Below, in pieces: positions 59,637-61,390 of a DNA stretch of 64,000 nucleotides; the stretch's first letter is position 1; each line of letters starts with the position of its first letter. Location of the stretch: sequence record OP688485. One strand, written 5' to 3'. The DNA is from Escherichia phage EP_H11. A program made the position numbers and the translations under genes. Below the pieces are notes generated by a model. That model was not told the DNA's origin, ran no database searches, and worked only from the letters and a program-made list of their open reading frames with translations.

Positions 59637-59680
59637 AAAAATGGGACTCATTCGTGATAGGGATGAGTCCCATTTATTTA
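59637..59680. terminator. bidirectional intrinsic terminator at the convergent strand switch
   Basis: aaatgggactcat-N12-atgagtcccattt, 13-bp perfect stem flanked by an A-tract 5' and a T-tract 3'. Confidence 0.7.
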
Positions 59681-60010
59681 GCGCTTAAAGATGCCCATAA
59701 TAGCATCGTTAAACAATCCTAACAGTACTGTAATAATCGCTAACGCACCGCTCCAGAATTTAATCTTGTCGTTTACTTCCTTAATCTCCTTCCTTAGATT
59801 ATCCTGCTCATCTTCAAGGCCAGAAATCTTCTTAGACATGAAATTCTGTGCAACGACTAGCTCGCGGATATCCGCTAATATCTCCGTCTGCTTACGAGAA
59901 GACTCCATAAGTTGATCAAGGATTACTCCCTGAAACTTCTGGTTAGATTCAAGTCTCGCTAGCCTATCGAGTTGGCGCCCACCGAACTCAGACTCTTCCC
60001 TCTCGCGCAT
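59678..60010 (-). CDS. membrane-anchored coiled-coil protein (lysis-associated, function unclear)
   Basis: Charged coiled-coil N-terminus and a single C-terminal TM (WSGALAIITVLLGLF); last gene of the minus-strand lysis block. Confidence 0.45.
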   Translation of the reverse strand: MREREESEFGGRQLDRLARLESNQKFQGVILDQLMESSRKQTEILADIRELVVAQNFMSKKISGLEDEQDNLRKEIKEVNDKIKFWSGALAIITVLLGLFNDAIMGIFKR

Positions 60011-60020
60011 ACAAGATTCC

Positions 60021-60230
60021 TCACTTCTGATTGCTCTCTAGGCAATCTATATAAGACACCAATTTAGCTAATTCAGCGTTAGGAATCCTGATCCCGTCTT
60101 TTTCCGCTATCGCTGCTATCGGTGGACGGTCGCATCTTATCTTCGGGGTCTGCATCTGCATTGGTAGGCTGTTGCAGCTTACCAAACTTAGACTCCCAAG
60201 CACCAGTAGGGTCGTTTTTAATTTCTTCAT
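60021..60230 (-). CDS. o-spanin-like outer-membrane lipoprotein (Rz1-like)
   Basis: Lipoprotein signal MKKLKTTLLVLGSLSLVSC with lipobox, Pro-rich mature part; GGAG upstream; overlaps the i-spanin candidate out of frame. Confidence 0.5.
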   Translation of the reverse strand: MKKLKTTLLVLGSLSLVSCNSLPMQMQTPKIRCDRPPIAAIAEKDGIRIPNAELAKLVSYIDCLESNQK

Positions 60231-60309
60231 CTTTCTTCTCCCGAAAGCGCACCTGCATGGCAGACACGAGTAGGGTAATAAGCCGAAGAATAAGAGTAAG
60301 AGCTTTCAT
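60079..60309 (-). CDS. i-spanin-like protein (Rz-like, N-terminal TM)
   Basis: N-terminal TM followed by a charged domain; ATGA coupling to the upstream holin candidate; contains the o-spanin ORF in another frame. Confidence 0.4.
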   Translation of the reverse strand: MKALTLILRLITLLVSAMQVRFREKKDEEIKNDPTGAWESKFGKLQQPTNADADPEDKMRPSTDSSDSGKRRDQDS

Positions 60310-60728
60310 ATCTTACTCCTTTTACCCTCTGGATTTTTGATCAGAGACTTGCCGTAATCAAGGGCATCAATAGCCTGGGTGGCCTTACTCACGAGATGTG
60401 GATCATCCTGAGTTTGGACTACATCGGAAAGAACCTGCTTAGCCTTATCCATGGTCTCTACTTTCTGCTCGTCCTGGGTAGCAGCTTTCTTATCTACTTT
60501 GGCAGCAGATTTAGGCAAGTTCAGAGCGATGAAGTTTAAAATGGACGCTGCATAACCGAGGTATTTCTTAACCACCCCAATGTATTCGTCGTCTTTAGTG
60601 TTAGGAGTTATTTTAGCGATCTTCTCGAGAGCTTGCACCAATACTGATGCGAGGCCGATTATAGCTAGTGCAAGAGCGATGTAATCATCGATCTTGGATC
60701 CATCAAGTACATCCAGGATATTGTCCAT
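60306..60728 (-). CDS. putative holin (two hydrophobic segments)
   Basis: Hydrophobic helices at about residues 14-34 and 55-70; immediately downstream of the endolysin on the minus strand. Confidence 0.4.
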   Translation of the reverse strand: MDNILDVLDGSKIDDYIALALAIIGLASVLVQALEKIAKITPNTKDDEYIGVVKKYLGYAASILNFIALNLPKSAAKVDKKAATQDEQKVETMDKAKQVLSDVVQTQDDPHLVSKATQAIDALDYGKSLIKNPEGKRSKI

Positions 60729-60742
60729 TATTAATCACCATA

Positions 60743-61390
60743 TTAAAGAGTTAAAGTCTGATTTGCTCTGCGTAGTACAGGCAGTCTGTCAGGTACGGTC
60801 GCCACAGACCCATTTATCTTCTGGGTTACTTTGGTGAATGCGTCCTGATCTGCTAATTGATTTAATTTATTTTTATCCCAGAACCACCCTGCAGTAAGCA
60901 TGATCGTTTCGAAATCAGTCTCTACTAACTCTGGATCTTCTACCAAACGGTCATCCCCAAAGATACTCAAGGAGGCCTCTCGATAGTTAGCTCTACCAGT
61001 TAGATGCATTGCCCCACGGCCAATATACTTATACCCGTCTCCGCTAGCCGGAGTTCCGTTACCCATGCGATTAGCATACACCTGATTGGCTAACTTCTCA
61101 GGGTCGCGTATGTAAGCATTAGCATTAAGCTTACCAGGTTCACCTCGAAGAGTAAATCTACTAGGCCACACAGCTACCAGACGAGACGCAGAGGTATAAT
61201 ACAGGGACTCCACAAACTTAGTGTAATCCCTAGTTTCAAAGGCAGTCTGCGCCATAAAATAGCGCAGACGACGATTGGTATTGATACCATAACGCTCGAT
61301 AGTAGTATTAATGGCGGGTAGCAGCTTTTCCAGCACTTCTGTTGAAGTTGTTGGGAGGAACTTCTTCAGCTGGTCAAGTGTAACGCTCAT
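60743..61390 (-). CDS. endolysin, glycoside hydrolase family 19-like
   Basis: GH19 signature YKYIGRGAMHLTGRANY and an N-terminal YFMAQTAFE block. Confidence 0.7.
   Translation of the reverse strand: MSVTLDQLKKFLPTTSTEVLEKLLPAINTTIERYGINTNRRLRYFMAQTAFETRDYTKFVESLYYTSASRLVAVWPSRFTLRGEPGKLNANAYIRDPEKLANQVYANRMGNGTPASGDGYKYIGRGAMHLTGRANYREASLSIFGDDRLVEDPELVETDFETIMLTAGWFWDKNKLNQLADQDAFTKVTQKINGSVATVPDRLPVLRRANQTLTL

Follow-up and report, generated by a model that had tools for sequence, protein, structure and literature searches.

A lysis cassette of Escherichia phage EP_H11 with a putative non-canonical partner for its outer membrane lipoprotein

The window that we analysed, a stretch of 64000 nucleotides (nt) from Escherichia phage EP_H11 (sequence record OP688485), holds five densely packed minus-strand genes at 61390–59678, as the first-pass annotation, working from an open reading frame (ORF) listing, had placed them. 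They encode in turn a GH19-type endolysin, ORF140 (family A), ORF76 (family B), ORF69 (family C) and ORF110 (D). The endolysin and the lipoprotein ORF69 are ordinary, whereas ORF140, ORF76 and ORF110 come from unstudied families. In our best explanation of the whole, towards which the balance tips slightly, this is a lysis cassette in which ORF140 acts at the holin step, ORF110 is an XhlA-like protein and ORF76 is a non-canonical partner of the lipoprotein.

On this explanation ORF140 would open a membrane lesion or act as an obligatory holin-level factor, through which step the soluble GH19 endolysin would reach the wall, and ORF110, a cytoplasmic coiled coil with a C-terminal membrane anchor, would be an accessory or regulator of the same step. 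The wall would be degraded first and the ORF76/ORF69 pair would then remove the outer membrane (OM). ORF76 would be the conserved partner of the lipoprotein, with its amphipathic helix and DPxGxWxxxFG motif as the core and a tail that may be filler from the gene overlap.

The ORF76/ORF69 pair

ORF69 (60230–60021, minus strand; 69 amino acids, aa) is composed of a signal peptide, a lipobox (LVSC, with Cys19), Asn at position +2, a Cys33-x-x-Pro-Pro stretch and a conserved C-terminal helix, ELAKLVSYIDCLE. The lipobox region reads MKKLKTTLLVLGSLSLVS/C-N-S, a residue other than Asp at +2 being that of OM sorting, and Asp at +2 was found in none of the C-family members examined. The mature protein has 51 aa, with Cys33-D-R-P-P and Cys63. 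Its direct PHROG match is weak (phrog_3198, Rz-like spanin, 0.005), and the family C member of Vibrio phage PVP-XSN matches phrog_8971, likewise Rz-like spanin, at 1.8e-21. Across family C the lipobox recurs, with a residue other than Asp at +2, a stretch rich in Cys and Pro and, at the C-terminus, a conserved helix of the form GGxxL...L..YIL(D/E)LE. ORF69 is, as its sequence predicts for both lipidation and OM location, an ordinary OM-sorted lipoprotein of an o-spanin-like family.

The ORF69 gene overlaps that of ORF76 out of frame by 152 nt and runs 58 nt past the ORF76 stop; the o-spanin-like lipoprotein with a lipobox that had been reported out of frame with ORF76 is present, although overlapped rather than contained. 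As in the overlapped spanins lambda Rz/Rz1 and P2 LysB/LysC (PMC6139136), the lipoprotein gene starts inside the preceding small gene, out of frame, and the pair lies downstream of endolysin and holin-type genes; ORF69 also resembles these systems in its lipobox, non-Asp +2 residue, Pro-rich stretch and periplasmic Cys. The difference lies in ORF76, which has no dependable N-terminal transmembrane domain (TMD), coiled coil, Cys or i-spanin similarity and whose C-terminal part is unconstrained. Of the 'classic Rz/Rz1' architecture claimed for this cassette, the gene geometry and the lipoprotein thus stand, but the partner protein does not.

ORF76 (60309–60079, minus strand; 76 aa) consists of an N-terminal leucine-rich amphipathic helix, a charged linker, an invariant DPTGAWESKFG motif and an acidic tail, and family B as a whole follows the same plan, with the motif in the form DPxGx(F/W)xxxF(G/N) and a tail that varies. 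ORF76 had no Pfam, PHROG or NCBIfam match at E ≤ 1 and no similarity to i-spanin families; its homologues in family B, whose genes always come before that of the lipoprotein, fall into phrog_9219 and phrog_24944, neither of which has an assigned function. The helix of ORF76 has a Kyte–Doolittle (KD) value, KD15, of 2.2, a Hessa sum of +4.0 and an Arg in its middle, and the values within the window clade are KD 2.2–2.3 and Hessa sums of +2.0 to +4.5. In other lineages the sum is +7.6 to +14.4, with a hydrophobic moment (muH) of up to 0.71, and over the family the moment is 0.3–0.7 at low mean hydrophobicity. The control i-spanin TMDs (lambda Rz, the phrog_1026 i-spanin and the ICP3 i-spanin) gave Hessa sums of −1.0 to −2.5 and a muH of approximately 0.2. 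We regard the N-terminal helix as amphipathic rather than a TMD in most B lineages and as borderline in ORF76.

The helix of ORF76 is followed by 56 residues, among which aa 46–76 are acidic and Ser-rich; we found neither a periplasmic coiled-coil domain nor any Cys, and the length of the tail across the family ranges from 0 to approximately 35 aa. The motif is kept where the B gene does not overlap the lipoprotein gene (PVP-XSN, L011; X29-like, L071); it therefore belongs to B itself and is no by-product of the C signal peptide. ORF76 occupies the i-spanin slot, but it lacks the features of an i-spanin or shows them marginally, and is probably not a canonical i-spanin. With no i-spanin family match, an amphipathic family helix, no periplasmic coiled coil and an unconstrained tail, it does not bear out the earlier description 'i-spanin-like'.

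Conservation among relatives bears on whether the two overlapping frames both code. The only related phage record, vB_EcoM_IME392 (L001), has 94.4% nt identity over the cassette region, and all five ORFs are intact in it and in Logan metagenome contigs (approximately 80% aa identity), an intactness that in the metagenomic relatives survives a 6-nt in-frame deletion. Third codon positions are the most variable sites (100/171 in ORF140 and 67/103 in ORF110). Within the overlap, aa 27–45 of ORF76 are invariant and the overlying ORF69 signal peptide varies at 5/19 positions; further on, the ORF76 tail (aa 46–76) varies at 16 of its 31 positions among close relatives and mature ORF69 at 8/31, and ORF69, the most conserved part of the cassette, varies in its C-terminal end at only 2/19. 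This partitioning of constraint argues that both overlapping genes are real and that ORF76 has its functional core in the first ~45 residues. In addition, leave-clade-out hidden Markov models (HMMs), built without the window clade and run on the 490 six-frame ORFs of the window, matched only ORF140 (3e-22), ORF76 (1.5e-7) and ORF69 (1.4e-5). Members of families A, B, C and D had no significant match in Pfam or NCBIfam.

Of the five genes, the public annotation of IME392 gives two, naming the endolysin 'putative lysis protein' and ORF140 'hypothetical', and leaves out the homologues of ORF76, ORF69 and ORF110 (L001, 5143–5774). Likewise, the C-family lipoprotein is absent from the annotation of Aeromonas phage phiARM81mr (L010, 3318–3536) and the B-family ORF from that of Vibrio phage 1.205.O (L013, ~3168–3383).

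As to how ORF76 would act, we tentatively favour, with less than even confidence, a protein that is peripheral or soluble and meets the lipoprotein only once the holin lesion opens. Several points weigh against this. We know of no precedent for a soluble spanin partner. All database names for A, B and D are 'hypothetical' and the roles given to them here are predictions, and the Hessa sums are crude and position-independent. The helix of the window-clade ORF76 is clearly more hydrophobic than those of the other lineages and may be a real TMD in this clade. Curators have also accepted very short i-spanins (47 aa in ICP3; phrog_1026 has a 68-aa member), so the length of ORF76 is not decisive by itself. 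A second reading, which we find doubtful, has the helix inserting in the window clade and makes ORF76 a very short membrane-anchored i-spanin.

It is unlikely, in our estimate, that the whole cassette works along familiar lines, with ORF140 as the holin, ORF76 as a short type II (N-in/C-out) i-spanin, ORF69 as its o-spanin and ORF110 as an unrelated extra, the ORF76/ORF69 complex bridging the periplasm and fusing the membranes as do lambda Rz/Rz1 or P2 LysB/LysC. The gene order and out-of-frame overlap do fit the 'overlapped' spanin class (PMC6139136), 19 mostly hydrophobic residues make up the ORF76 helix of the window clade (KD 2.2), curated i-spanins go down to 47 aa, and unrelated A-carrying phages have a canonical short spanin pair in the same slot (phrog_1026, 3e-13; phrog_1275, 3.6e-15). 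Yet the homologues of ORF76 in at least eight lineages carry D/E/K/R within the helix (Hessa sum +7.6 to +14.4; muH 0.4–0.7), and ORF76 itself has no i-spanin family match, no coiled-coil periplasmic domain and no Cys. Lambda Rz contacts Rz1 through its C-terminus; the C-terminal 31 aa of ORF76 are unconstrained (16/31 variable). Moreover, 56 periplasmic residues and the approximately 50 of the mature lipoprotein would barely span the periplasm.

The setting of family B in other phages bears on a further alternative. Directly after A almost every locus has a B gene, the 3′ part of which overlaps the lipoprotein gene C, and this A–B/C order is kept in approximately 50 loci from Aeromonas prophages, Vibrio phages and marine viral contigs, which carry at least four endolysin types and differing upstream holins. 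The loci that were retrieved through the lipoprotein were found with a Vibrio-only alignment of family C, and a scan of the genome collection matched two Aeromonas prophages only. ORF76 could be a cytoplasmic antiholin or timer that binds the amphipathic helix of ORF140, with ORF69 acting alone or with a host protein; we hold this to be improbable. T4 RIII is a cytoplasmic holin regulator, as is phiKZ gp143 (PMC12894885), and the gene directly before B is always A or a holin-like one. B of the X29/PVP-XSN lineage is still joined to A, by overlapping stop and start codons, with the lipoprotein gene 550–800 nt away. Against such a regulator, the B/C overlap is kept in more than ten lineages, including ones in which B/C occurs without A (L075–L078), and we know of no OM lipoprotein that disrupts the OM alone.

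The endolysin and ORF140 at the holin step

The endolysin (61390–60743, minus strand; 215 aa) is a soluble GH19 muralytic enzyme and, on its sequence, an ordinary member of its class, in agreement with the first-pass annotation. It scores 32.9 bits against Pfam Glyco_hydro_19 (cut-off 25.5), matches the endolysins of phrog_181 at 1.8e-59, and in the PDB finds 9eoi at 5.3e-32 and the endolysin 4ok7 at 1.5e-15. It is alike over its full length to the GH19 phage endolysins 9eoi, 9ms6, 8p8e and 4ok7 (E 5e-32 to 1.5e-15), from which nothing notable sets it apart: it has the same size (~210 aa), the same E-x8-E pair and no export signal. Its E52 and E61 align with Glu residues of 9eoi, and we take this pair to be the catalytic Glu residues of GH19. 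We found no signal peptide, signal-anchor-release (SAR) domain or hydrophobic N-terminal stretch in it, and from established lysis biology an endolysin without an export signal requires a hole-forming holin.

ORF140 (60728–60306, minus strand; 140 aa), our holin or holin-level candidate, has an acidic N-tail, a TMD (aa 16–34), a TPNTKDDE motif, an amphipathic helix (aa 44–69) and then a clade-specific helical extension of approximately 65 aa, the last predicted at low confidence by AlphaFold2 (AF2). The AF2 model is all-helical with a predicted local distance difference test (pLDDT) score of 58 and is usable for secondary structure only. The first 80 residues match phrog_9685 (unknown function) at 1e-15. 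Members of family A begin with an acidic N-tail, of median length 7 aa, have a single TMD and then a TP(S/T)xKDD(E) motif and an amphipathic helix, and finish in a basic end; in all sources they are named 'hypothetical' or 'TMhelix containing'. The protein had been described as a two-TM holin, but the second stretch is the amphipathic helix, with a crude Hessa sum of +7.6 compared with 0.0 for TM1, and this leaves a single TMD. The second segment of the phiARM81mr A homologue has a Hessa sum of +10.7, and throughout family A it is amphipathic with K/D residues. K+R are richer after the TMD than before it in 34 of 37 A members, and by the positive-inside rule these proteins are therefore predicted to be N-out/C-in, with approximately 49 cytoplasmic residues.

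A 1-bp indel alters the C-terminus of ORF140, which ends ...GKRSKI* in the window (60306–60320) and ...GKKE* in IME392 (L001, ~5125–5145); the end of the extension is evidently dispensable. At the ORF140/ORF76 junction the window has an ATGA overlap of stop and start, and IME392 a 3-nt gap.

A holin-level role for ORF140 is plausible. It fits generic holin features in having one TMD, a K-rich region behind it and a gene that adjoins that of the endolysin, and no other small TMD protein of the window matches a holin family. Family A occurs in 56 IMG/VR viral loci, which represent 11 lineages or more and in which lysis genes are almost always its neighbours, and stand-alone A homologues of 50–80 aa adjoin lysis genes in Aeromonas phage phiARM81mr, Vibrio phages PVP-XSN and 1.205.O, and Shewanella phages 1/4 and 1/40. 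We considered and rejected A as the missing i-spanin, as it is predicted to be N-out/C-in and co-occurs with canonical i-spanin/o-spanin pairs: it accompanies such pairs in L055–L060, and in L061 the order is a tail-anchored coiled coil, A, a canonical-looking i-spanin/o-spanin pair and the endolysin. In the lipoprotein-retrieved loci L075–L077, a 64-aa two-TMD holin-like protein replaces A in the same slot. Standing beside canonical spanin pairs and being replaced by a holin-like protein, A thus behaves as a holin-slot protein and is not a spanin substitute.

Two precedents show that a single-pass protein of N-out/C-in topology, with a tail in the cytoplasm, can be indispensable for lysis (PMC9239132; bioRxiv 10.1101/2024.01.23.576932). 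The Mu gp25 releasin (DUF2730) is N-out/C-in with a 73-aa cytoplasmic domain (PMC9239132), and LambdaSo Lcc6 (SO_4795), of 65 aa, has an N-terminal TMD and a 43-aa cytoplasmic tail and is needed at the holin step (bioRxiv 10.1101/2024.01.23.576932). Family A is like both in its short periplasmic N-tail, one TMD and cytoplasmic tail of 45–105 aa, and like both is encoded near the endolysin; the likeness of ORF140 to Lcc6 is one of architecture alone. Mu gp25 differs in that neither ORF140 nor ORF110 has a match to DUF2730 (PF10805) in Pfam at E ≤ 1, and the endolysin here is soluble, not SAR. ORF140 is probably a single-pass N-out/C-in inner membrane (IM) protein acting at the holin step, as predicted from these features, either as the hole-former or as an obligatory Lcc6-like factor. 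Against a holin function, another holin candidate lies upstream of the endolysin in the Aeromonas and Vibrio lineages, where A may serve as a second holin, as an antiholin or in the manner of Lcc6; A could therefore be accessory, and the true holin of EP_H11 could lie in the 47 kb outside the window.

The large marine viral contigs (103–128 kb; L055/L057/L058, 3453–4764) and Shewanella phages 1/4 and 1/40 have A followed by the phrog_1026/phrog_1275 pair, and also by a coiled-coil protein whose TMD is N-terminal (phrog_32256) and a protein with four TMDs (phrog_35852). Elsewhere in the window, at 48842–49069 on the plus strand, is a gene for a 75-aa two-TMD protein with a hydrophilic tail and a holin-like shape, with no PHROG match.

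The tail-anchored coiled-coil protein ORF110

ORF110 (60010–59678, minus strand; 110 aa) is a tail-anchored coiled-coil protein, as had been noted from the sequence before. AF2 models it as a single helix over aa 2–109 (pLDDT 87.8), 14 of its 26 LIVMF residues fall in one a/d heptad register, compared with 7.4 expected, and a C-terminal TMD (aa 86–108) has two residues behind it. Insertion of tail-anchored proteins is post-translational and leaves their N-terminus cytoplasmic (PMC6794478), and we therefore place the rod of ORF110 in the cytoplasm.

The relatives of this protein are few. An exhaustive HMMER search of 1.84e9 representatives found no homologue outside its own clade, a word-indexed protein search found its own clade only, a scan of viral contigs gave one weak coiled-coil match, and tblastn against phages gave one borderline Vibrio match (E 0.02). 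ORF110 falls below the cut-off of Pfam XhlA (PF10779; E 0.22, 12.2 bits against 34.7) and matches phrog_1193 weakly (0.0016). Architectural analogues do occur in L079, L076/77, L061, L042 and Vibrio phage 1.123.O (L012), and L079, with its endolysin, A, B/C and tail-anchored coiled coil, has exactly the order of the window. As this architecture recurs in related cassettes, ORF110 is probably part of the system rather than an add-on, and of the label 'extra membrane protein' the membrane anchor is supported but not the 'extra'. An HMM of the analogues does not detect ORF110, however, which makes the comparison one of analogy only and counts against this view.

XhlA of the Bacillus prophage PBSX is a holin-associated lysis protein, and ORF110 resembles it in length (~90–110 aa), N-terminal coiled coil, C-terminal TMD and lysis cassette location, but differs in having sub-threshold similarity, a Gram-negative host and a gene at the end of the cassette rather than before the holin. 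The cytoplasmic holin/lysis regulator phiKZ gp143 (PMC12894885) is comparable as a fifth, non-canonical small protein in a lysis cassette, with the holin as its target on the cytoplasmic side, and is a possible analogue of either ORF76 or the cytoplasmic rod of ORF110, although ORF110 is membrane-anchored and a relationship in sequence would not be expected. By analogy with XhlA and the phiKZ regulator, we infer that ORF110 may be an XhlA-like holin accessory or regulator.

ORF110 is the sole coiled-coil protein of the cassette, and one might instead take it for the real IM spanin subunit, N-out/C-in, with an 85-residue (~12–13 nm) periplasmic rod that meets ORF69. IM proteins of other topologies, for example with a C-terminal TMD, were not considered as i-spanins by Kongari et al. 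(PMC6139136), and tail-anchored coiled coils do recur beside B/C pairs (L079, L076/77). This is nevertheless very improbable: ORF110 has no signal peptide and a highly charged N-terminus (16 K/R, 18 D/E), and the two residues after its TMD imply post-translational insertion with a cytoplasmic N-terminus (PMC6794478). It is also missing from many Aeromonas and Vibrio cassettes that have B/C, and in L076/77 the gene in question precedes the endolysin and is thus apart from B/C. We also rejected a u-spanin-like fusion that would join ORF69 to ORF110 by read-through or frameshift, since the in-frame continuation of ORF69 stops after ten codons, ORF110 has a Shine–Dalgarno sequence and an ATG of its own, and most B/C cassettes lack ORF110.

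Setting of the cassette and its bearing on outer membrane disruption

The five-gene minus-strand lysis cassette that the first-pass annotation had proposed is thus upheld by its ORFs, by their conservation in relatives and by a terminator at its end. A Shine–Dalgarno-like sequence, read off the alignment, lies 6–7 nt before each of the five ORFs; the ORF140 start is 15 nt from the endolysin stop, and the ORF140 stop and ORF76 start overlap as ATGA. Directly after the ORF110 stop begins an RNA hairpin (~59675–59639) followed by U5, the whole intrinsic terminator occupying 59634..59675 on the minus strand as judged by fold energy (−19.3 kcal/mol, z = −5.1, with 0 of 200 shuffles as stable). A consensus terminator scan missed this hairpin, the loop of which exceeds 8 nt; RNA folding reveals it. 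Almost all genes from 15 to 59624 are on the plus strand of the window, and the minus-strand block begins at 59678 and on its upstream side takes in a tail-fibre-like gene, which has more than 799 aa. This places the cassette at the distal end of a late operon converging on the early/middle block. We therefore regard it as a genuine late-operon lysis cassette, whose transcription follows that of the tail-fibre genes and ends at an intrinsic terminator.

The tail-fibre-like gene is separated from the endolysin by a 58-aa ORF (61415–61591, minus strand), which is conserved in all relatives and has no TMD and no family matches. A second peptidoglycan hydrolase, of 120 aa and the SleB/Hydrolase_2 type, is encoded on the plus strand at 58469–58831, at a distance of approximately 850 nt. 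The protein has a phrog_938 'endolysin' match (6.9e-23) and, in relatives, homologues with PF07486, and is a candidate for a second endolysin, a virion enzyme or another role. EP_H11 belongs to the RP13-like group with thymidine-hypermodified DNA (PMC12686479), and dCTP deaminase and dUTPase are among the plus-strand genes that in relatives (L003/L008) run towards the cassette. The plus-strand block also encodes a 137-aa lipoprotein (lipobox VAAC; 34086–34499, plus strand) with no PHROG match and, in its early/middle part, a spanin-like gene geometry at 46492–46701 and 46619/46649–46870 (both plus strand) with no family matches.

The question on which this cassette bears is how the OM is breached in phages whose lipoprotein lacks a linked partner of type II. 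Our reading of the literature turned up neither a spanin partner devoid of a TMD nor the families described here. Kongari et al. define i-spanins as type II IM proteins and file genomes with a lipoprotein but no linked partner of that type as 'spanin-less' (PMC6139136); 31 surveyed genomes have a lipoprotein gene of this kind (PMC6139136), and phages with the ORF76/ORF69 pattern would be placed in the same class. Shewanella phage 1/4 is listed by them as 'spanin-less' (PMC6139136), and in VP882, also so listed, none of the four families A–D was found.

If ORF76 is an ordinary short i-spanin, the cassette is routine. The further proposal of a new class of OM disruption, in which a lipoprotein acts with a TMD-less amphipathic-helix partner that reaches the periplasm only via the holin lesion, we hold to be rather unlikely. 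The cassette places a conserved lipoprotein, a non-canonical partner and two lysis-linked membrane proteins in a phage that plates on E. coli, so that the standard lambda complementation and topology tools are directly applicable, and it gives provisional functional context to the PHROG families phrog_9685, phrog_9219 and phrog_24944. Were the proposal true, the OM step would be licensed by the holin, as the endolysin is, and the pair would be accompanied by a single-pass IM protein dedicated to it (A, possibly Lcc6-like) and, in many cases, by a tail-anchored coiled coil; such a module would then be widespread in phages of Aeromonas, Vibrio and E. coli and would explain some of the 'spanin-less' phages with an orphan lipoprotein.

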